A stretch of DNA of 50,094 bases. Source: an uncultured Bdellovibrionales bacterium. GTDB lineage: Bacteria; Patescibacteriota; Minisyncoccia; Moranbacterales; UBA11712. Position 1 is the stretch's first letter. The number at the start of each line of letters is the position of its first letter. Of the stretch, positions 6,490 through 48,534 are shown piece after piece. The notes under the pieces are model-generated. The model saw only the letters and a program-made list of their open reading frames with translations. It did not search any database and was not told the DNA's origin. Made by a program: the position numbers and the translations under genes. The DNA is taken from assembly GCA_964543275.1 (NCBI GenBank), contig CAZIWW010000001.1, positions 36,003 to 86,096 on the forward strand. The letters run 5' to 3'.

Positions 6490-7803
6490 ATGAATAATAA
6501 AGAGAAAGACAATCATTGGCCATATAAGGAACCTTTCTCTTCCAAGAAGCGTCCTGGGAAAATAATTCTTTCAGAAAAAGAGAGAAATAATCTTGCGAAT
6601 GAAATCATCTCTTCTATTTTTAATGATTCAAATAATACTTTAAGTCTTGAAGGGCATAACCGTGATTCTAGTATTGACGCGAAGGGCGAAAAACTAAGTT
6701 CAGAAAAAGAATTAAATTTCGAGGAACAGGCGCGCGGAGAGATTAGAAACGCTTTCGATTCGTTTTTTCGGGAAATTAAGGCGCTTGTTGGCAGAGAAGG
6801 CATAAAAGGGTTATTAGAAATTGGGATTAATGCTAATAGTCTGGAAAAGGAGCTTCATATTTTTAACGACGAAAAAATTATTAAGCGATGTTGCGAGACC
6901 GTTCTTAAAATTTTTCACAACAAACAGGATAACGGTCTCGGTATTAGAAATTGGGCGAATACGGTTGTTGAAACGGCTTTGAGAAAGGAAGGAGAGGAAA
7001 TAGCAAAAGCGCTCGATGTTATTAGAAATAGAAAGATAAGTAGCGGCGAAGTGAAAATAGGAAAGGTGATTAGGAGAAAGTCGCCTGAGTCTGATGATGT
7101 TCTTTCAGCTAAGAGCGAAGCTCCATCCGGAGAAGGGGAAATTGTTCTCGGGAATGAACAAGAGGTAAGTGAGGATGATCTTCAAGAGCAGTTAAAAGAA
7201 ACGGTGAGAGGGATTGTTAACAGTGAAATAGAGAAGATTAAAAACGAAAGCCTGATAAGCCGAGGAGTGAAATACGACAGTTACATTGAAGGAAAAATTA
7301 AATCTCAATGGTTAAAGGCCGGTGAGTTAACTGGCGACGAAATTAGCGAGATAGCAAAAAAATATCTGGAAGAGAGACAAAAAGTCGCGGATGCCGTGAC
7401 GGAAGATATTCTGGAGAATCTTGAACTAAATCCGGGCAGAAAGAAAGACGAAGGATACATTTCAACACTCGCTTTTTTGTGGACTAGAAAGAAAATTTTC
7501 GAATACGCGGAAGAGTATTTGGAAAACAAAAAGGTTTCTGAAAAAGGAAAGTTAGATTTTACTCCGGAACAGCAGGAGGCTGTTGATTTGTTATTAGAGG
7601 AAGCATCAGGATACAACGAAGAAATTGCTGGCATTTTGGAGAGAAGCGGCAAGGCGAAGTTTTATACTGCTGAAAATATAAGCAATCTTATTGAATCTCA
7701 TTTAAGAGAATTAATTTTCAAAAATTTTGTGGAAGATAAATTTTTTTCAGATAGTGACGTTGAAAAAGTGGTTAAGCATGTTTTAGAAAATTTAAATAAG
7801 TAG
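6490..7803 (+). CDS. Hypothetical acidic, predicted helical protein (no family recognised)
   Basis: Long ORF. Start moved to ATG 6490 because the promoter lies inside the TTG-6460 extension. No TM; E/K-rich. Confidence 0.55.
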   Translation: MNNKEKDNHWPYKEPFSSKKRPGKIILSEKERNNLANEIISSIFNDSNNTLSLEGHNRDSSIDAKGEKLSSEKELNFEEQARGEIRNAFDSFFREIKALVGREGIKGLLEIGINANSLEKELHIFNDEKIIKRCCETVLKIFHNKQDNGLGIRNWANTVVETALRKEGEEIAKALDVIRNRKISSGEVKIGKVIRRKSPESDDVLSAKSEAPSGEGEIVLGNEQEVSEDDLQEQLKETVRGIVNSEIEKIKNESLISRGVKYDSYIEGKIKSQWLKAGELTGDEISEIAKKYLEERQKVADAVTEDILENLELNPGRKKDEGYISTLAFLWTRKKIFEYAEEYLENKKVSEKGKLDFTPEQQEAVDLLLEEASGYNEEIAGILERSGKAKFYTAENISNLIESHLRELIFKNFVEDKFFSDSDVEKVVKHVLENLNK

Positions 7804-7805
7804 TT

Positions 7806-10232
7806 ATGACAGAGGTTTTTAAAGAAATATTGAAAGCGGGCGCAAGACGTGGAGAGGAATTTGCTAAAAAGGCAAAGGGGCTTAGAAGTGGAAGTCAAGA
7901 GGAATTACCCAAAGCTACTGATGAGGAATTGGCGCAGGCGGAACTGTATGAACAGAAAAAAGAAACTGGACGGAAGAACGATCTTAAGGACGGTCTTGGA
8001 GAAACACATAAAGGAGACGGAGCTCAAGGGGTACTTGAGGGAGCGAGAGGCACTGCTACTGCTATGCTGGGGGAGAATCAGGAAGAACCGCGGCAAAAAT
8101 CTCTTACTGAAGCTGAAGCAAAAGGAGATGAAGATCCATCATTAGTTGAGAATGCTGAACTGGCTGGAGAGCATATCACTGAAGAGGTGCCGAAAAAAGA
8201 AGAGAAAGGTGAAGGGACCAAGAGTTTAGAGATGTTAAAAAAGGATCTTGAGGAAAAAAGGGCAAAGTACGCTCGTTTAGATACAGATATTTCGGGTAAG
8301 TGGTCGAGGCTTAAGAGAGTGCTGGGCTTGAATATTAAAGAAGTGAAGAACAAAGATGTCGATGTTGAGAAAGCCAGACGGGAATATTATGAAGCGTTGG
8401 AAAAATATGCCGGCGCAAGAAAGGCTTCCTTGCCGGAAGGAGATAAGAAAGCGGCTGCGGAACTTTTAAAAGAAGTTCGTCTTGATGAGGCGCTTAATAT
8501 TTTTAATGCCAAAACGGACGAAAGGTTAAAGGCGAGAAAAGAAAGAGGCGATTGGCCAAGCAAGTTAATGGACGGATATATGAAAGCGGTTGAGAAGTGG
8601 CGGGGATACAATTGGAAAACAAAGCTTGCTCTTTCGGGGATTTTGTTAACTGCCGGGGCAGCCAGTGGTCTTTATGGAATTGCTTTTGGTTCCATAGGCG
8701 CTGGAGTTTTTTCAACATTTAAAATTTCCCAGAGGGCGTTAAGCGCCGGAGCAACTGGACTTGGGATAAAGAAGATGTGGGATGCGGCTTCCTTAAAACG
8801 AATGGAGAAAAAATCAGTGAAAGAAATCGAGGGAATGTTATCGAAAGATGATTGGTTAGACAGGTTTGATTCTAAATTAGATGAGAGCATAAAATCTGTT
8901 AATGAGAGGCTGGCAAAGATAGAAAAGAAGGATTTAACGAGGAAAAGAGTTGCGGTGTGGGCTGGTATTTTGTTTGGCGGCGGAGGAATGATTTTCGATA
9001 TTTATAAGGGCTGGTCCGGATCCGGATTGGGGAAAACGGCGGACGTGGTTTCCGGCAAGCCGTCCGGCGCCGGGGTGACCGATGTGCGTAAGCCGAGCGG
9101 GATTGGTCAACCCCCCGTTGAAAAAACTCCAGGTACTCATATAGGTACTCATATTGAGCCGCCCAAAGCGCCTCCGGCCGACGAAGTAATTAAGTCGCCG
9201 GCAGTTACTACAGAGGATATTATTAGCAAGCCGCCCGATAAATATGTTACAACTCCGATTCCAGCGGAGACAACTGAAAAGATGACGGAGTTTATGGGAG
9301 ACTCAACTGAAATTAAAAAAGGCGGAAGTATTTGGAAATCGGTGCGAAGGTTGTATATGAAGCATCCGGAAGAGTATGGATATGGTTCGGACGGAGAGCG
9401 AGTTAAAAGCTTGTTTAAATCGTTCAAGGAGCAGGGGATTTTGAAACGTCTGGGAATTCGAGGGATTGATAATTTCGAAGATTTAACCGATGAGCAGAAG
9501 ATTAAAATCTGGTCGGAGTGGAAGACAGCTAATTCTGTCAGGGATCTTTCCATTTCCAGCGGTGGGAGAATTAAAGATTTGGTCCACGCTGGAGATAAGA
9601 TTTTTCTTGATAAGGACGGGAAAATCACTTTTGATTTCGAGCGCGGTTCCGGCATAAGACCGGGCTATTTGTCCGGTCACGAAACTGGCGCGGGTAAGGG
9701 CGGCGGAGTCGCGGAAGTCGTCGGCGGCGGAGCAGGCGCGGAAGAATTTCGCGAAGGCGAGAAGCCGGCTTGGCTTGAGGAATATGATAAAAGAATAGGA
9801 GAAACGAGATTAAGAGAGCAGGCGGCGGAAGCTAGATTAGATAGAGCTGACGAGTATTTGCGGAAGACTAGTGATGATTTAGCGGCGGCTAGAGAAGCAG
9901 AAACAGCGGCTATTGACTACACTCGGACTCATGAATTGATGGATTATATCCAGCAAAAGCTTTCAGGAGTTGATATCGACTGGGGCGCTCGCGGATCGGC
10001 TATGAGAATGTATGACGAATTAAAACAAGGTTCGCTAATTAATTCTGATCAGCCTATGGCGCCGGATATGGGCAAGGAACAGTATTGGAAAACACTCCGG
10101 AGGTTAACTGACGATCTTGGCAAACCGCGAGGTGGCGAAACAGTCGAGGAGTGGGTAAAGAGAGGATTGGAGCGTAAAAAAATTTCTCCAGAAAGAGTAA
10201 TTAGCGTCCTTAAGAAAGTATCCAATGGGTAA
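7806..10232 (+). CDS. Hypothetical large membrane protein (no family recognised)
   Basis: 808-aa ORF starting 2 nt after the previous stop. E/K-rich N-terminal third, central hydrophobic segments (LALSGILLTAGAASGLYGIAFGSIGAGVF; VAVWAGILFGGGGMIF), Pro-rich linker, C-terminal globular part. Confidence 0.6.
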   Translation: MTEVFKEILKAGARRGEEFAKKAKGLRSGSQEELPKATDEELAQAELYEQKKETGRKNDLKDGLGETHKGDGAQGVLEGARGTATAMLGENQEEPRQKSLTEAEAKGDEDPSLVENAELAGEHITEEVPKKEEKGEGTKSLEMLKKDLEEKRAKYARLDTDISGKWSRLKRVLGLNIKEVKNKDVDVEKARREYYEALEKYAGARKASLPEGDKKAAAELLKEVRLDEALNIFNAKTDERLKARKERGDWPSKLMDGYMKAVEKWRGYNWKTKLALSGILLTAGAASGLYGIAFGSIGAGVFSTFKISQRALSAGATGLGIKKMWDAASLKRMEKKSVKEIEGMLSKDDWLDRFDSKLDESIKSVNERLAKIEKKDLTRKRVAVWAGILFGGGGMIFDIYKGWSGSGLGKTADVVSGKPSGAGVTDVRKPSGIGQPPVEKTPGTHIGTHIEPPKAPPADEVIKSPAVTTEDIISKPPDKYVTTPIPAETTEKMTEFMGDSTEIKKGGSIWKSVRRLYMKHPEEYGYGSDGERVKSLFKSFKEQGILKRLGIRGIDNFEDLTDEQKIKIWSEWKTANSVRDLSISSGGRIKDLVHAGDKIFLDKDGKITFDFERGSGIRPGYLSGHETGAGKGGGVAEVVGGGAGAEEFREGEKPAWLEEYDKRIGETRLREQAAEARLDRADEYLRKTSDDLAAAREAETAAIDYTRTHELMDYIQQKLSGVDIDWGARGSAMRMYDELKQGSLINSDQPMAPDMGKEQYWKTLRRLTDDLGKPRGGETVEEWVKRGLERKKISPERVISVLKKVSNG

Positions 10233-34832: not shown

Positions 34833-34904
34833 GGCCCCTTCGTCTAGTGGTCAGGACATCAGGTTCTCATCCTGGAAACAGGGGTTCGATTCCCCTAGGG
34901 GCTA
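34833..34904 (+). tRNA. tRNA-Glu (anticodon CUC), no encoded CCA
   Basis: Folds by eye as a cloverleaf. Acceptor GGCCCCT/AGGGGCT, anticodon stem TCAGG/CCTGG with loop TTCTCAT, T arm AGGGG-TTCGATT-CCCCT. Confidence 0.85.
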
Positions 34905-34962
34905 CGGAAAATTAAAAGCACAACCTCTCTATTTAGTTTGAGCTAAATAAAAAAGTTGCGCT

Positions 34963-38687: not shown

Positions 38688-38718
38688 TATCTAGTATATT
38701 GTATCTTGCATTTTGTAT
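38688..38718. repeat. Left inverted-repeat arm of four-helix-bundle gene cassette 2
   Basis: TTGTATCTTGCATTTTGTAT matches 19 of 20 positions of the reverse complement of 39091-39125. Confidence 0.65.
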
Positions 38719-39091
38719 GGTTACGGATAATAAGAAGATAAAATCATTTACCGATTTATATGCTTGGCAAGAAGCGCATAAATTAGTTTTAATGGTTTAT
38801 GCGGAAACTGAAAAATTTCCTAAAAGAGAAATTTTTGGTTTGACTGTCCAGATAAGACGGTCAGTTGTTTCTATTACATCTAATATCGCGGAAGGCTTTA
38901 ACAGAAATGCTTCTAAGGATAAATGTCAGTTTTATTCTATGGCGCACGGATCATTAACTGAATTGCGAAATCAGTTGCTAGCGACAAGAGATGTCGGGTA
39001 TTTAAGCCAAGCAATTTTTAATAAGCTTGCCGATCAAACGGTTGTTGTTGCTAAGTTGATTAATGGCTTGAGAAAAATAAGAAACAAATGA
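38717..39091 (+). CDS. Four-helix-bundle protein (23S rRNA IVS protein / Avd-like family) inserted in the por operon
   Basis: FTDLYAWQEAHKLVLMVYAETEKFPKREIFGLTVQIRRSVVSITSNIAEGFNR...GSLTELRNQL is the canonical family pattern. Confidence 0.8.
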   Translation: MVTDNKKIKSFTDLYAWQEAHKLVLMVYAETEKFPKREIFGLTVQIRRSVVSITSNIAEGFNRNASKDKCQFYSMAHGSLTELRNQLLATRDVGYLSQAIFNKLADQTVVVAKLINGLRKIRNK

Positions 39092-41694: not shown

Positions 41695-42996
41695 ATGCTT
41701 ACCCACGAAAAAAATGTAATAGATGATGGAAAATTGAGTGGCAGCTATAAAAGAATTCTAATTACCTCCATCATTATCACTTTCTTTATGTCCTCTTTTC
41801 TGGGAGCGGTTTTTGGTTTTATGGGGGCTATGGTTGGTCAGCAGAAAGTTTTTTCCTGGCTTCCCGGATTTTTTCAGGAAGAGCGCGACGAGTTAATTGA
41901 CAGAAGCGATGATAGTAGCGCCAGTGAAACTCATAAATTAATCGAAGAAGAATCGGCGGTGACAGCCGTAGTTGAAAAAGCTTCGCCGGCAGTGGTTAGT
42001 ATCATTGTCACCAAGGACATTCCTAAGATACAGGAGTTTTTTTTCGATCCGTTTGAATCCGATCCATTTTTTAATCCGTTCGGCTCCAGAGACAAGAATC
42101 GGAATGATGCAAATGAAGGGGAGACAGAGAAACGGGAAATTGGAGGCGGGTCGGGCTTTATTGCTTCGAAGGACGGGCTGGTAGTTACTAATAAGCATGT
42201 AGTTTCAGATCAAAGCGCTGATTATACGGTTATGACCAATGATGGCAAAAAGTACGAAGCGCAAGTTATGGCCATTGATCCAATGAATGATATCGCTATC
42301 TTGAAAATAAATGCTAATAATCTCCCAGTGTTAGAGTTTGGAGATTCTGACAGCCTAAAAATTGGGCAGACGGTTATAGCTATAGGAAATTCTCTAGGTG
42401 AATTTAGAAATACTGTAAGTAAGGGAATTATCTCTGGGCTTAAGAGGTCGCTGACGGCTGGAACCGGGACTGGTGAACTGGAGACATTGAGCGAAGTCAT
42501 TCAGACTGACGCGGCTATCAATCCGGGAAATTCCGGCGGCCCGCTGCTTAACATTGATGGCCGGGTAATTGGAGTAAATGTGGCTATGGCTCAAGGAGCG
42601 GAGAACATCGGTTTTGCCCTGCCTGTAAATTTAGTTAAAAAAGACATTAATAGTGTTAAGAGTAAAGGAAAAATTGTGCAGCCGTTTTTGGGAGTGCGCT
42701 ATGTTATAGTTAATAAGCAAATCCAAAAGGAAAATAATCTTCCTTATGATTACGGCGCTTTGATTTTGCGCGGCCAGCGAATATCCGACTTAGCGGTGGT
42801 GCCCGGCAGTCCTGCTGACAAAGCTGGAATTGTGGAGAATGACATAATTTTGGAAGTGAACGGAAAAAAAGTCAACAATAAGACCCCACTCGGCAGTTTA
42901 ATAGCTAAATATAATGTAGGCGATACGGTAAATCTTAAAATTTGGCACAAGGGAGAAGAGAAGACGGTATCAGCGAATTTGGAAGAAAGAAAGTAA
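41695..42996 (+). CDS. HtrA/DegP-family serine protease with a PDZ domain
   Basis: N-terminal TM. Triad contexts VTNKHVV, NDIAILKI and GNSGGPLLN. C-terminal PDZ (GSPADKAGIVENDIILEVNG). Confidence 0.85.
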   Translation: MLTHEKNVIDDGKLSGSYKRILITSIIITFFMSSFLGAVFGFMGAMVGQQKVFSWLPGFFQEERDELIDRSDDSSASETHKLIEEESAVTAVVEKASPAVVSIIVTKDIPKIQEFFFDPFESDPFFNPFGSRDKNRNDANEGETEKREIGGGSGFIASKDGLVVTNKHVVSDQSADYTVMTNDGKKYEAQVMAIDPMNDIAILKINANNLPVLEFGDSDSLKIGQTVIAIGNSLGEFRNTVSKGIISGLKRSLTAGTGTGELETLSEVIQTDAAINPGNSGGPLLNIDGRVIGVNVAMAQGAENIGFALPVNLVKKDINSVKSKGKIVQPFLGVRYVIVNKQIQKENNLPYDYGALILRGQRISDLAVVPGSPADKAGIVENDIILEVNGKKVNNKTPLGSLIAKYNVGDTVNLKIWHKGEEKTVSANLEERK

Positions 42997-43004
42997 AAAA
43001 TCTT

Positions 43005-43025
43005 TTTAGGGATCCGATCCCTAAA
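43005..43025. repeat. REP-like 21-nt palindrome, upstream copy (inverted orientation)
   Basis: TTTAGGGATCCGATCCCTAAA. Matches 20 of 21 positions of the reverse complement of the other two copies. Confidence 0.7.
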
Positions 43026-43042
43026 TTCCTCAAACTAATGAA

Positions 43043-43696
43043 ATGAGAAGGAAAGTAGAGCTTGTCAGCGGTCAATATTATCATGTTTATAACCGAGGTG
43101 TTGAGAAACGCGATATCTTTTTGGATGATTCTGACTATCTTCGCTTTTTGAAGTCCTTGAAGTGCTTCAATCAGGAAGATCCTATCTTCAGCTTGTTTTG
43201 GAATAACATTAAAAAGAGAAATTTAGGGGTCGGATCCCTAAAATCAAGGAAGTTGGTAGATATCGTAGCGTATTGCCTGAATCCTAACCATTTCCATTTA
43301 CTCTTAAAACAGGTAATCGACGGTGGCATTTCTGAATTTATGAGAAGGTTGGGTACAGGCTATACAGGTTATTTTAATCACAAATATCAACGATCGGGTG
43401 TTTTGTTTCAAGGAAGATTTAAATCAATTCATATAAGTTCAAATTCGTATCTTTTATATTTGTCTGCTTACATAAATGAAAATAATTTTATTCATGGATA
43501 CACAGAAAATAGCCGGAATTGGAAATATTCAAGTTATTCCGATTACATAGGGGAAAGGCAGGGAGAGTTGTGCAACAAAGATATTATTCTTGATCAGTTC
43601 GGATATGACTTCAAAGGATATGAAGAATTTTCCAGGGAAAACGCTTTATATCTTAAGGAGAGAAAGGAAGATGAGAAATATTTATTGGAAAACTGA
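43043..43696 (+). CDS. IS200-like / REP-associated (RAYT-like) Y1 HUH transposase
   Basis: YHVYNRGVEKRDIF, the HUH motif NPNHFHLLL, LFQGRFKS, and a Tyr-containing helix LSAYINENNFIHG. No tnpB partner. Confidence 0.7.
   Translation: MRRKVELVSGQYYHVYNRGVEKRDIFLDDSDYLRFLKSLKCFNQEDPIFSLFWNNIKKRNLGVGSLKSRKLVDIVAYCLNPNHFHLLLKQVIDGGISEFMRRLGTGYTGYFNHKYQRSGVLFQGRFKSIHISSNSYLLYLSAYINENNFIHGYTENSRNWKYSSYSDYIGERQGELCNKDIILDQFGYDFKGYEEFSRENALYLKERKEDEKYLLEN
43222..43242. repeat. REP-like 21-nt palindrome, copy inside the transposase CDS
   Basis: TTTAGGGGTCGGATCCCTAAA, identical to 43700-43720. Translated in frame as LGVGSLK. Confidence 0.7.
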
Positions 43697-43699
43697 CCT

Positions 43700-43720
43700 T
43701 TTAGGGGTCGGATCCCTAAA
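43700..43720. repeat. REP-like 21-nt palindrome, downstream copy
   Basis: TTTAGGGGTCGGATCCCTAAA, 4 nt after the transposase stop and 6 nt before the clpB ATG. Confidence 0.7.
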
Positions 43721-43725
43721 TTTTT

Positions 43726-46332
43726 ATGGACTTAAATAGGTTTACTCTAAAATCCCAAGAAGCCTTGCAAGGAGCGCATCAGTTAGCTCAAAGCCAGAGT
43801 CAAAATGTTGTGGATGTTTTGCATTTGCTTTATGTGCTTATTACCCAGGAAGAAAGTGTTGTTCCAGCCATCCTGGATAAATTGAATGTAAAAAGGGATG
43901 AGTTGAAAAACGATATTTTTTCCGAGATAGAAAAAATTCCCAAAGTTTCTAGCACGCAGGTTTATTTATCTTCTGAAATGGCGGGCGTTCTGCAGGAGTC
44001 TTTCCGCGAAGCCCAAAGTTTAGGAGATAGGTTTGTTAGTACCGAGCATTTATTTCTAGCATTGCTAAATGTGGCTAGTCGTGCTAAAAAATTTTTAGAA
44101 GAAAGCGGCATCAATCGTAGCGAAGTCTTAAAAGTTATGAAAGAAGTAAGGGGAAACCAAAGCGTTGATAGTCCGTCGCCGGAAGGGAAATATCAGGCTT
44201 TGGAAAAATACACCATTAATCTTACCCGCGAAGCCAGTCAGGAAAAATTGGATCCGGTAATTGGAAGAGAAGAGGAAATCCGAAGAGTTATGCAAGTTCT
44301 TACGCGACGCACCAAGAATAATCCGGTGCTTATTGGAGAAGCTGGGACGGGTAAGACTGCCATTGTTGAAGGTTTAGCCCAAAGAATAGCGACCGGCGAT
44401 GTTCCTGAAAGCTTAAAGGGCAGGGAAATTTTGGCTTTGGACTTGGGTATGATTTTGGCCGGTTCGAAATTCCGTGGAGAATTTGAGGAAAGATTTAAAG
44501 CTGTCCTAAACGAGATCGAAAAGTCGGAAGGAAAATATATCTTGTTTATTGACGAGCTGCACACTTTAGTTGGAGCCGGAGCTATTGAGGGAGCAATGGA
44601 CGCCTCTAATATGCTTAAGCCGGCTTTAGCCAGAGGAAAACTGCGGGCTATCGGCGCGACTACGCTCAAAGAATATCAAAAGTATATTGAAAAGGATGCG
44701 GCTTTTGAGCGACGCTTTCAGCCTGTGCTGGTTAAAGAACCGACGGTTGAAGATGCCATTGCCATTCTCCGCGGTCTTAAGGAGAAGTATGAAGTTCATC
44801 ACGGGGTGCGCATCACTGACGGGGCTATCGTGGCGGCGGCCAATCTTTCTAACCGCTATATTACCGATCGCTTTCTGCCTGACAAAGCGGTTGATCTTAT
44901 AGACGAAGCTACTTCCGCTCTCCGAATGGAAATTGACAGCATGCCTGGGGAAATAGATAATCTGGAGCGTGAGAAAAGAAAACTAGAGATAGAAAGAGAA
45001 GCTTTAAAGAAGGAAAAAGATGAAGAGTCGAAGAAGAAAGTGAAAGAAATTGAAAAAAAATTAGCCGATGTGAAAGAAAAGGCTAATAGATTAAAGCTGC
45101 AGTGGAAGAACGAGAAGGATCTTATAACTAATATCAGAGGCTATAAAAGTGAAATCGATCGCTTAAAAGGAGAGTCTGACGTTTTGGAGCGCAGAGGCGA
45201 GCTAAGCAAGGTGGCCGAAATTCGCTACGGGAAAATCCCAGAGCTTAAAAAGAAAATAAAAAAAGAGCAGGGAAAATTAAAAGTTCTGCAGAAGAATAAT
45301 CCTATTCTCAAGGAGGAGATTACTGAAGAAGATGTTGCCAAAGTGGTTTCCCGATGGACCGGCGTTCCGGTCGCCAAAATGCTGGAAGGAGAGATGGAAA
45401 AGTTAGCTAAAGCTGAAAAAGCCTTAAGTTTAAGAGTAATCGGGCAGGAGGAAGCTGTTTCGGCCGTGTCAAACGCTCTTCGCAGGTCGCGAGCTGGTAT
45501 TGCTGAAGAGAGCAGACCTGTCGGATCTTTTATTTTTCTCGGTCCTACCGGAGTAGGCAAGACAGAGTTAGCCAAAGCGCTGGCGGAATTTCTTTTTAAC
45601 GATGAAGACGCAATGATAAGGGTCGATATGAGCGAATATATGGAGCAGCATAGCGTAGCTAAGATGATTGGATCGCCTCCCGGTTATGTGGGGTACGAGG
45701 AAAGCGGGCAGTTGACGGAAAAAGTAAGAAGACGTCCCTATAGCGTGATACTTTTTGACGAGATTGAAAAAGCCCATCCGGATGTTTTTAATATGTTGCT
45801 TCAAATTTTGGATGACGGGCGTCTTACTGACGCCAAGGGGCGCGTGGTTAGTTTTAAGAACGCGGTTATAATTATGACTTCTAATGTGGGAAGTGACATA
45901 ATTTATAAAATGCGGGAGATTGGCTTCAAGAACGAAAGAAAAAGAGAAATCTTAAAAGAAGAGGAGATGAAAGAAAGGGTTATGCGAGCTCTTCGGGAAA
46001 AGTTTAAACCAGAATTTTTGAATCGAGTGGATGAGATAATTATTTTCCATCCTCTGAACACCGGGCAAATTAAGAAGATTATCGATCTTCAATTGAATCA
46101 AGTTAAGCGGAGATTGGCTGGCAGAAATATCCAGTTGGAAGTAACATCGGCGGCGAAAGAGTTGCTTGTCAGGAAGGGGTTCGACCCGGTTTTCGGAGCC
46201 AGGCCTCTGAAGCGAACGATCCAAAATTTAGTCCTTGACGAGTTGGCTCTTAGGATTGTAGAAGGAAAGGTTAAAGAAGGAGACAAGGTGAAGGTGGATG
46301 CTCGAGGCGGGAAAATAGTCATAAGGGAATAA
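43726..46332 (+). CDS. clpB: ATP-dependent chaperone ClpB
   Basis: 868 aa. Clp N domain, two AAA+ modules (GEAGTGKTA; GPTGVGKTE) and a long middle coiled coil. Confidence 0.95.
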
Positions 46333-47319: not shown

Positions 47320-48534
47320 ATGAGTGATGTCAAGAGCAATAAATCTTACACAAGCCGAAAATCTCGCGTGTTGCACCGCGGTGCGAGGTTCGTTTTTTTT
47401 GCGGTCTTTATTTTTGTGGTAGCCGGTGTAAGTTCAGTAATAGTGGATAAGTATTTATTTCCTTATCTCACTAGCGTTGATTGGCTTAATAAGTATGACC
47501 TTTTCAAAAAGGGAGCGGAGAATATAGTAGTGATTAACAAAACAGAAGAAGTTGTTATTAGCGAAGAGCAGACCATTGCCAAGTATTCCGACAAAGCCGC
47601 TTCCAGCGTGGTGGAGATAGTTTCCAGGAAGAAGAGCGGCAAGAAAGTAAAATCGTTGGATAAAAACAAAAGTGAGATAGGCAGCGGTTTAATTATTACG
47701 GCCGACGGTCTGGTTATAACTCACCGCGAGGCGATAATTGACAAAAGCGCCGAGTACAGAATTTTTACTTATGATAACAAATCCTACATCGGGAAACTTC
47801 TGATGATTGACTCCTTTTCTAATTTAGCGTTTCTAAAATTGGAGGGAGCGACTAATCTTCCCACAGCGTCTTTTATCAATCCGGACGATATTAAAATCGG
47901 GGCTAAGGTTGTGGTTATAGGAAAGAGCGGATCTAATTCTCAAACATTCTTTAAATCCGGCCTCATTAGTCAGTTTGCCAAGAATTATTCCATAAGCGGG
48001 CCATTGGCCTCGTCCGAGAAACTGCAGGGAGTTTTTTTTCTAGACGCTGATTTTGAGAATGATTGGGATGAAAGTTTAATTGGAAGCGCGGTGGTTGATT
48101 ACAATGGGGATGTGATTGGAATTTTGGGAGCCGTAAAAGATGATCAGCGAATGAGATTTTTTGTAGCTCCGGTAAATCATATCCAAGAGCTTACCAAACG
48201 TTATCTCGAGGAAGGGGTTGTTGAAAGAAGTACTCTAGGAATTTACTATGTTCCGCTGACCAAGGAGACAGCCTATTTGAGCGGGAGCGGTCTGGATCGT
48301 GGAGCTTTAGTTTACTCTTCGAGTCTTCAGCAAGGCTTGGCAGTTATTGCCGGCAGTCCGGCGGATAAGGCGGGTCTTCGGATAATGGATATAATCATAA
48401 GCGTTAATGGAGAGGAAATTAACTCTGATCAAAATTTGGCCTATCTTATTTCGAAATATAAACCTGGGGATGAGATTACTCTTAAAATTGTAAGGGATGG
48501 AGAAAGAATAGATGTTAAAGCAATATTGGAGTGA
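47320..48534 (+). CDS. HtrA-like protein with PDZ domain; catalytic triad apparently substituted
   Basis: Colinear with 41695-42996, but VTNKHVV becomes ITHREAI, NDIAILKI becomes SNLAFLKL, and GNSGGPLLN becomes ESLIGSAVVD. PDZ retained (GSPADKAGLRIMDIIISVNG). Confidence 0.6.
   Translation: MSDVKSNKSYTSRKSRVLHRGARFVFFAVFIFVVAGVSSVIVDKYLFPYLTSVDWLNKYDLFKKGAENIVVINKTEEVVISEEQTIAKYSDKAASSVVEIVSRKKSGKKVKSLDKNKSEIGSGLIITADGLVITHREAIIDKSAEYRIFTYDNKSYIGKLLMIDSFSNLAFLKLEGATNLPTASFINPDDIKIGAKVVVIGKSGSNSQTFFKSGLISQFAKNYSISGPLASSEKLQGVFFLDADFENDWDESLIGSAVVDYNGDVIGILGAVKDDQRMRFFVAPVNHIQELTKRYLEEGVVERSTLGIYYVPLTKETAYLSGSGLDRGALVYSSSLQQGLAVIAGSPADKAGLRIMDIIISVNGEEINSDQNLAYLISKYKPGDEITLKIVRDGERIDVKAILE

Follow-up and report, generated by a model that had tools for sequence, protein, structure and literature searches.

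Does a lone transposase-like gene form a functional pair with the short palindrome that lies before, within and after it, or is it an ordinary insertion sequence (IS)? The question is raised by a gene for a Y1 HUH protein (the Y1 gene) on contig CAZIWW010000001.1, in a stretch of 50,094 nt (the window) from a genome of the candidate phyla radiation (CPR) type. A preliminary description of this DNA had proposed that the gene and a 21-nt hairpin are a pair of the kind formed by REP-associated tyrosine transposases (RAYTs) and repetitive extragenic palindromic (REP) sequences. Our analysis leads to a related reading, which we consider probable: the locus represents a minimal REPtron, in which a domesticated class-2 Y1 HUH enzyme, similar to RAYTs and to the tyrosine transposases associated with terminal inverted repeats (TIRYTs), is combined with a family of 3-5 short palindromes. 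The evidence comes from the conservation and covariation of the hairpins in homologous loci and from the inheritance of the gene.

Three copies of one hairpin around the Y1 gene

The sequence TTTAGGGGTCGGATCCCTAAA is present identically inside the coding sequence (CDS) of the Y1 gene and directly after it. The sequence TTTAGGGATCCGATCCCTAAA, directly ahead of the gene, differs from it at two positions on the plus strand and at one on the minus strand, and thus matches its reverse complement at 20 of 21 positions (see Table 1 for the coordinates). These copies, as well as the in-frame peptide LGVGSLK ahead of the HUH motif N82-H-F-H85, are just as the preliminary description had them. The upstream copy lies 9 nt past the stop codon of an htrA-like gene and 18 nt ahead of the Y1 start codon. 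The downstream copy starts 4 nt past the Y1 stop codon and takes 21 of the 29 nt that separate this codon from the ATG of clpB, a spacer that it had rightly been said to fill almost completely. The internal and the downstream copy each contain a single G·T wobble on the plus (sense) strand. At stem position 8 the widespread form of the palindrome has G-C, these two copies have G·T and the upstream copy has A-T, and the state in the window can be read as an intermediate one.

The gene is indeed bracketed by copies of the hairpin, as had been claimed. The additional claim that the copies are inverted is less secure: the sequence is nearly its own reverse complement, and the call for the upstream copy hangs on the central base and one stem position. 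In the homologous loci described below, the orientation of the loop base(s) follows no consistent pattern. A search with up to three mismatches revealed no further site of the 21-mer in the 50,094 nt (expected from shuffles 0.00), and the 13-nt core GGGRTCNGAYCCC was found, with at most one mismatch, only at these three sites (0.11 expected in the window). A tRNA or another known RNA could be ruled out as the identity of the hairpin, as Rfam and ARAGORN yielded only a tRNA-Glu elsewhere in the window (34833-34905). A literature text search for the palindrome sequences gave nothing relevant.

Conservation and covariation of the hairpins

Readable DNA from nine orthologous loci and from both copies of one paralogue gave 11 homologous genes. 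A hairpin is found inside the CDS in all 11, and the same sequence recurs at one or both flanks in 10 of them, L073 being the exception. Counted along the CDS, the internal hairpin starts at +178 to +183 in each of the nine orthologous loci and at +446, right after the Y motif, in the paralogue. The flank copies are located 15-38 nt ahead of the start codon, no farther than ~35 nt from the stop codon, or at both places. More specifically, the upstream copy precedes the start codon by 15-38 nt in L066, L067, L070, L072, L075 and L078, and the start of the downstream copy ranges from 5 nt before to 15 nt after the CDS end in the same six loci and in L077.

The sequence of the stem varies between loci and is the same at all sites of one locus, so that at least six stem types can be distinguished (Table 1). 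In an alignment of 23 hairpins, 98.6% of the cells are standard pairs and 6 of the 10 pairs show changes on both sides. The remaining peculiarities of the stems are five sense-strand G·T wobbles and one non-standard C·A (in the internal hairpin L067_int), which would be a wobble on the other strand. The covariation score amounts to 0.462, versus 0.195 for shuffles (none of 500 reached 0.462) and 0.04-0.11 for slid controls. Moreover, a stem predicted from a peptide alone was confirmed: the peptide VDVRRL predicted GTAGACGTC.GACGTCTAC, and L077 carries exactly that sequence, also after its stop codon and after htrA. The hairpin codons themselves are unusually well conserved between orthologues (6/6 and 9/9 identical, versus ~50-63% for other codons of the same amino acid; p = 0.017 each). 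A crude count of peptide motifs assigned one of the verified hairpin types to 44 of 120 homologous proteins, the rest having other variable linkers. The 'palindrome potential' of synonymous codons was uninformative, as background stems reach 10-11 and the real hairpin of the window contains a wobble.

Taken together, the presence of the hairpin within the CDS of every gene and its covariation with the flanks indicate that the internal copy belongs to the hairpin set as a member that is maintained and co-evolves with the others, and that it is not an accidental private insertion. The preliminary description, which had proposed to check by alignment for an insertion, thus underestimated this copy, a conserved feature of the clade.

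The gene in L073 carries an inverted doublet in its CDS (10179-10213; also in L074) that resembles the REP doublets forming hairpins (REPINs) and has the form GGGGACTAAGTCCCC-ATAAG-GGGGACTTAGTCCCC, read as RGLSPHKGDLVP. This gene sits in a different conserved neighbourhood, between genes for an ABC ATPase and a MacB/FtsX permease. The Y1 paralogue is located, in syntenic position, before a NUDIX gene (L070 19477-20118; L075 19551-20192) and has the palindrome ACTTGGAAAC(N)GTTTCCAAGT upstream, in the CDS and after the stop codon. An additional hairpin of the paralogue type is present at the PolX end in L070 (17000).

Properties and inheritance of the Y1 protein

The protein is recognized by the Pfam family Y1_Tnp ('Transposase IS200 like') with 35.3 bits at a cutoff of 23, and it has at least 7,800 homologues in the database at E <= 1e-5. 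The nearest of these stem from Parcubacteria and Moranbacteria assemblies and frequently bear the JGI name 'REP element-mobilizing transposase RayT'; among viral contigs no relatives were found. In an alignment of 29 relatives the residues H83, H85, Y143, N145 and N147 are invariant. The AlphaFold (AF2) model of the 217-aa protein has a mean predicted local distance difference test score (pLDDT) of 75. Its top match in the Protein Data Bank (PDB) according to Foldseek is 4ER8, the complex of the E. coli RAYT with a REP hairpin (E = 5e-7, template modelling score for the target 0.60, structure-based identity 14%), which outranks the transposase structures of IS608, ISDra2 and IS200. A PDB search with the single sequence returned a spurious match only (E = 0.2). 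The peptide encoded by the internal hairpin (residues 60-67) is the least confident part of the model, with a pLDDT below 50; it forms a loop that connects helix 51-61 to strand 72-79, from which the chain runs on to the HUH motif. The hairpin is thus predicted to be tolerated in frame because its peptide sits in a disordered surface loop.

Neither tnpB nor a second Y1 gene was found within the 50-kb window. Domain, fold and motif evidence therefore agree with the earlier description of an intact open reading frame (ORF) for a RAYT-like Y1 HUH protein without tnpB in a CPR-type (Parcubacteria/Moranbacteria-like) genome.

The inheritance of the gene points in the same direction. An htrA-like gene lies upstream of the Y1 gene in the orthologues (58-80% amino-acid identity), at times with one or two small unrelated genes in between, and is found there in L067, L070, L075, L077 and the P0014 locus. 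The downstream order in the orthologues is P-type ATPase, GcpE, PolX, NUDIX and SecDF, with clpB in the place of the P-type ATPase in the window. Strains that are 99.6-99.7% identical to the window share its gene order and its three hairpins. Between orthologues the synonymous sites are saturated (pS 0.61-0.87; pN 0.08-0.22), and dN/dS, where computable, is ~0.06-0.1. The members of the paralogue pair (L070, L075) are ~45% identical to the window protein and are each syntenic; no such paralogue is present in the 50-kb window. In view of the single copy, the conserved gene order and the saturated synonymous sites at this low dN/dS, the Y1 gene is domesticated and vertically inherited, unlike an insertion sequence. 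The vertical inheritance of domesticated RAYTs has been described by Bertels et al. 2017. Its conservation by purifying selection and its partly syntenic location mark the protein as RAYT-like and not of the IS200 kind.

Occurrence of the palindrome in other genomes

Copies of the hairpin beyond those next to the Y1 gene are, where present, found in the intergenic spaces that separate htrA from the Y1 gene. Outside the orthologous loci, palindromes of this family are dispersed in a variety of genomes, where they behave like dispersed repeats with several copies on different contigs. The exact 21-mers of the window are present at four loci of a 997,691-bp CPR contig, and the form TTTAGGGGTC-N-GACCCCTAAA was found on seven contigs of a single Patescibacteria metagenome-assembled genome (MAG), on several contigs each of a Saccharibacteria MAG and an Eubacteriales MAG, and in Sutcliffiella strains. 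In Sutcliffiella and Bacillus genomes the same form is the centre of a 37-nt palindrome. The 21-mer of this form is found in Eubacteriales, Saccharibacteria and 'Pacearchaeota' MAGs as well (these occurrences comprise L001, L039, L008, L012, L014, L018, L025, L034 and L040), and the core of the hairpin is therefore shared across phyla. On several other contigs the exact 21-mers of the window are arranged as inverted doublets of the type [xxGGGATCCGACCCCxx]-5/6 nt-[xxGGGGTCGGATCCCxx], which is the layout of a REPIN.

Distant Y1 genes adjoin a related palindrome too. For instance, L029 has copies at both flanks and none inside the gene, and in L001 (3866-3902) and L039 (~7126-7162) the palindrome lies ~180 nt upstream of a 198-aa Y1 gene of the YIHLNP type, the product of which is 30% identical to the window protein.

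The 21-mers are also found in frame within housekeeping genes of other CPR genomes, for the most part as inverted doublets. These genes encode cysteinyl-tRNA synthetase (CysS), MurD-like and MurC-like ligases and a GT4 glycosyltransferase (see Table 1 for the sites). The doublet in CysS, read as FRDPTPKS...LGVGSLK, is at the same position in two different genomes; the CysS of the window lineage (L079) has an unrelated segment of similar length there. In a crude ORF test, 21 of 71 hairpin matches fell inside ORFs of at least 120 aa.

Mechanism and alternative explanations

If the locus is a minimal REPtron, a dimer of the protein would bind the hairpins in single-stranded DNA and would cleave and rejoin the DNA beside them through Y143 and the HUH metal site. 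The analogy is to TnpA-REP of E. coli and TnpA of IS608, of which solved complexes exist, and to the biochemical work of Corneloup et al. 2021. The enzyme may then copy or replace hairpins among its few sites and thereby keep the copies alike, and a hairpin population so small might drift quickly to new master sequences. More speculatively, the hairpins in and beside the transcript could also influence how the Y1 gene and the next gene, 5-26 nt downstream, are expressed.

Several observations weigh against this reading. The profile NF047646 (REP_Tyr_transpos), an equivalog model for RAYTs of the E. coli type, gives 37.5 bits, under its cutoff of 80, and only profile positions 38-146 are aligned. 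The class-2 motif Y-x-x-x-N-P reads Y143-I-N-E-N147-N148 in the window; across the clade the N is invariant and the P is lost to N, Y or H; more distant homologues keep NP (YLHFNP in L029, YIHLNP in L001). In L073 no flank copy matching the internal doublet was found in the 20-kb locus. Furthermore, the copies found in 187,009 nt around the 11 genes (15-17-nt core, at most two mismatches) are all confined to a distance of 2.5 kb or less from a Y1 gene, which leaves the term 'repetitive' unproven for this lineage. There are no dispersed copies in the 50-kb window, nor in the ~4 kb by which L079 extends past its end, and the zero copies in roughly 150 kb of background correspond to an estimated upper bound of ~20 per Mb. 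Thus, of the RAYT/REP pair originally proposed, the bracketing of the gene by its own palindromes, as in a REPtron, was borne out, and the dispersed REP was not, within the DNA covered. Finally, binding and cleavage of the hairpins by the protein are inferred by analogy, enzyme-driven homogenisation is inferred as well, and the covariation of the palindrome fits a single-strand hairpin and a symmetric double-strand binding site alike and cannot separate the two.

The latter point leaves room for an explanation in which a symmetric dimer, formed by the helical C-terminal tail of the Y1 protein or by another regulator, uses the palindromes as double-stranded operators for autoregulation and the control of the neighbouring stress genes. 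Parallel changes in the half-sites would mimic covariation, the perfect 10-1-10 dyad places the half-site centres 11 bp apart, and one copy separates the stop codon of the htrA-like gene from the Y1 start, with another just ahead of clpB or the ATPase gene. In addition, HTH-like C-terminal domains have been reported for the subclass 2.1 relatives (Quentin et al., PMC6006769). However, a Pfam scan detected no helix-turn-helix (HTH) domain in the 217-aa protein, and the solved Y1 HUH enzymes (the 4ER8, IS608 and ISDra2 complexes) bind single-strand hairpins. The G·T wobbles on the sense strand and the C·A of L067_int fit the folding of a strand better than recognition of a duplex, and an operator would be senseless inside the CysS, MurD and glycosyltransferase genes of other CPR genomes, where inverted doublets with differing outer stems are found. 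We therefore hold operators to be improbable. About as improbable, in our view, are elements that act at the RNA level (terminators, mRNA stabilisers or processing sites) and are unrelated to catalysis, with the internal copy as a neutral passenger. Terminator and stabiliser functions are known for REPs (Di Nocera et al. 2013, PMC3733652), extra copies follow directly upon the stop codons of neighbour genes in L067, L070 and L077, and the downstream copy in the window matches a terminator pattern, with a T-run after it. The match is limited to the window copy: in the aligned homologue flanks the downstream copy is followed by A-rich bases and not by T. As only the window copy has the T-run, a conserved role as terminator, one of the two functions suggested earlier for this copy, seems unlikely. 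The other, a role in the leader of the downstream gene (clpB in the window), is possible, because in every locus the next gene starts 5-26 nt after the downstream hairpin. The RNA folding energies of the hairpins are modest (about -9 to -10 kcal/mol; -9.7 kcal/mol for the upstream copy) with non-significant z-scores, which speaks against strong terminators. Moreover, terminators need no common sequence, whereas the copies are identical within a locus and change together between loci. A neutral passenger would decay, yet the codons of the hairpin are better conserved than synonymous positions elsewhere and the internal position has been kept over saturated divergence.

An ordinary IS200-like element, the flank hairpins of which would be the subterminal hairpins at the left and right end of a ~0.72-kb unit that transposes as a whole, would account for the size of ~716 bp, for the lone Y1 gene and for the hairpins at both ends. 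The name of the Pfam family and the presence of the IS608 and ISDra2 TnpA proteins among the structural matches are in line with it. Nevertheless, we consider it highly improbable. The position is partly syntenic (htrA upstream; ATPase and PolX downstream) over 58-80% identity with saturated synonymous sites, there is no second copy in 50 kb, and the paralogues within one genome are only ~45% identical. The protein has 217 aa and a conserved C-terminal tail, versus ~150 aa for class 1, it has N where class 1 has 'Y---Q', and 4ER8 ranks above every IS200/IS605 structure.

The minimal REPtron could also be given a bolder form, which we regard as rather unlikely. The intragenic hairpin would then be an obligatory cis element and the enzyme would act on its own locus. 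It could homogenise the 3-5 copies in a manner like gene conversion, and it could also excise or rejoin the stretches from one hairpin to another, so as to switch the gene itself or its stress-gene neighbours (htrA, clpB or the P-type ATPase gene) on and off. The variable genes bounded by hairpins between htrA and the Y1 gene (L067, L070 and L077) would fit such a cassette-like role. If true, the RAYT-hairpin pair in these tiny CPR genomes would be a self-contained local device, and a pointer to the role of domesticated RAYTs that lack a large REPIN population.

Coordinates and neighbouring genes

Table 1. Features of the locus, stem types of the hairpin and in-gene hairpin sites in other CPR genomes
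Feature	Position or locus	Strand	Sequence or remark
HtrA-like serine protease (Trypsin_2 + PDZ)	41695..42996	+	conserved upstream neighbour of the Y1 lineage
Upstream hairpin copy	43005..43025	.	TTTAGGGATC-C-GATCCCTAAA, perfect 10+1+10 palindrome
Y1 HUH protein gene, 217 aa, intact, single in window	43043..43696	+	class-2 TnpA-Y1 (RAYT/TIRYT-like); predicted single-stranded DNA nuclease/transposase
Internal hairpin copy	43222..43242	+	TTTAGGGGTC-G-GATCCCTAAA; in-frame reading L61 G V G S L K67
HUH motif N82-H83-F84-H85	43286..43297	+	H83, H85 invariant in alignment
Presumed catalytic tyrosine Y143, motif Y-I-N-E-N-N	43469..43471	+	counterpart of class-2 'Y---NP', proline replaced
Downstream hairpin copy	43700..43720	+	identical to internal copy; TTTTT comes next
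clpB	43726..46332	+	start codon 5 nt past downstream hairpin
Stem type	window, L066		TTTAGGGGTC.GAyCCCTAAA
Stem type	L067, L070, L075		GTAGGTGTC.GACACCTAC
Stem type	L077		GTAGACGTC.GACGTCTAC
Stem type	L072		TTTGGACATC.GATGTCCAAA
Stem type	L078		CTTGGACAC-NNN-GTGTCCAAG
Stem type	paralogue (L070b, L075b)		ACTTGGAAAC-N1-3-GTTTCCAAGT
In-gene hairpin sites, other CPR genomes	L045 6907-6962; L053 1393-1439; L050 780-825; L062 1097-1140; L057 ~1201-1242; L037 5725-5745; L044 6039-6059

The genes in the interval between htrA and the Y1 gene differ by genome and are bounded by copies of the hairpin of the locus. L070 has two identical tandem genes of 198 aa (8472-9998; also in L071) with a hairpin after each, L067 has one gene of 402 aa (8436-9987), L077 has a gene for a GNAT acetyltransferase (7925-8506), and the window has none. 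The hairpins in this interval look like the borders of inserted or duplicated segments.

A second HtrA-like gene (Trypsin_2 + PDZ) is present at 47320-48534, so that two of them flank the Y1-clpB pair in a stretch rich in protein quality-control genes. The heat-shock operators CIRCE, CtsR and HAIR, considered in this htrA/clpB context, were rejected on a comparison with their consensus sequences and because the orthologues have the P-type ATPase gene, not clpB, downstream. Nothing resembling a Shine-Dalgarno sequence can be seen from the downstream hairpin to the ATG of clpB (window 43697-43728; CCCTAAATTTTTATG). The Y1 start is preceded by TTCCTCAAACTAATGAA, likewise without a visible Shine-Dalgarno sequence, and by an overlapping out-of-frame ATG-AAA-TGA. 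Further upstream, a small ORF (38699-39091) lies inside the pyruvate:ferredoxin oxidoreductase cluster of the window and is, by its counterpart in L079 (5674-6048), a '23S rRNA intervening sequence protein' (PF05635). An ORF of this type is found at the same place in L070 and not in L067, L075 and L077.

Implications

The role of RAYTs for their host and the co-evolution of these enzymes with their REPs are open questions. The clade described here is very large and resides in minimal genomes, in which the gene is kept under purifying selection with only 3-5 cognate hairpins, one of them internal and all changing in concert. This suggests that the maintenance of a RAYT is independent of a large REPIN population. 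In addition, such elements seem to shape proteins in gene-dense genomes, to judge by the in-frame doublets in CysS and MurD from other CPR members. With a protein of 217 aa and a hairpin of 21 nt, the locus offers a compact and testable system.

Relation to known REPtrons, TIRtrons and palindromic elements

The TnpA-Y1 proteins have been sorted into classes by Quentin, Siguier, Chandler & Fichant 2018 (PMC6006769). In their subclass 2.4 (group 4 of the RAYTs of Bertels), which comprises REPtrons of Cyanobacteria and Bacteroidetes, in-frame REPs lie inside the tnpA-REP gene, in a peripheral variable region, and the REPs are of the 'double-foot' type (5' GT[AG]G ... C[TC]AC 3'). The present locus extends the RAYT/REP layout thus described in other bacteria. 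It shares with subclass 2.4 the flanking of the RAYT gene by its own REPs, the in-frame internal REPs, a motif NH[IFV]H that covers NHFH, and, in part of the orthologues, the double foot, in the form GTAGGTGTC.GACACCTAC. When the foot tetranucleotide is compared with the 5' GT[AG]G of REPs, it is GTAG...CTAC in L067, L070, L075 and L077, TTAG...CTAA in the window and L066, and TTGG...CCAA in L072 and L078. The differences are that the hairpin lies here before HUH (orthologues, from CDS nt +179, residues 61-67) or after Y (paralogue, +446), that FQ is found instead of WQ and Y[IV]NxN[NYH] (YINENN in the window) instead of YIxNNP, and that there is a conserved tail of ~70 aa with the motif W-x-Y-S-S (WKYSS), which subclass 2.4 lacks.

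The clade does not fit subclass 2.4 and resembles subclass 2.1 (TIRYT), as judged by motifs only. The TIRYT/TIRtron systems (subclass 2.1, Bertels group 1; Di Nocera et al. 2013, PMC3733652) have NH[YF]H, FQ and the 'SS' tail motif in common with the clade, and their repeat families are likewise small or absent. The flanking repeats of TIRtrons contain GGGGWSAS, and the widespread palindrome TTTAGGGGTCAGACCCCTAAA, which adjoins homologues with 30-44% identity in L001, L039 and L029, has GGGGTCAG as its 5' half. The core of the window, GGGGTCGG, is off GGGGWSAS by one position. Moreover, TIRtrons have long terminal inverted repeats, whereas here short self-complementary hairpins are found, one of them in the gene. 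No REP-like hairpins were found in subclass 2.1 by Quentin et al. (PMC6006769), who report HTH-like C-terminal domains for it.

The RAYT of E. coli (TnpA-REP, YafM; subclass 2.2; 4ER8) is, like the Y1 protein, a HUH/Y1 enzyme that is inherited vertically and encoded by a single gene with cognate hairpins at its flanks. With its G·T, the stem of the window copies is imperfect and recalls the mismatch or bulge that serves strand discrimination. Hundreds of dispersed REPs in E. coli contrast with the 3-5 local copies found here, and the E. coli gene contains no copy. With the TnpA proteins of the IS200/IS605 family (IS608, ISDra2, IS200) the locus shares the HUH/Y1 fold and a ~0.7-kb unit with a hairpin at either end; it deviates from them in the Y motif (YINENN, not 'Y---Q'), in the length of the protein (217 aa versus ~150) and in being syntenic, single-copy and without tnpB.

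The Rickettsia palindromic elements (RPEs) and intragenic REPs are also short palindromic repeats that lie in frame at permissive sites of genes, as seen here in CysS, MurD and glycosyltransferase of other CPR genomes. RPEs are longer (~100-150 bp) and are not known to have a cognate transposase, whereas the elements described here are 21 nt long, or form a doublet of ~45 nt, and are linked to a Y1 gene family.

Thus, an intragenic REP in a RAYT gene is already known in kind (PMC6006769). What appears to be new in comparison with those descriptions is the fixed internal position (ahead of HUH in the orthologues, behind Y in the paralogue), together with the apparent concerted evolution of the internal and flanking copies via compensatory changes. 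The very small and local hairpin population and the CPR setting appear to be new as well.

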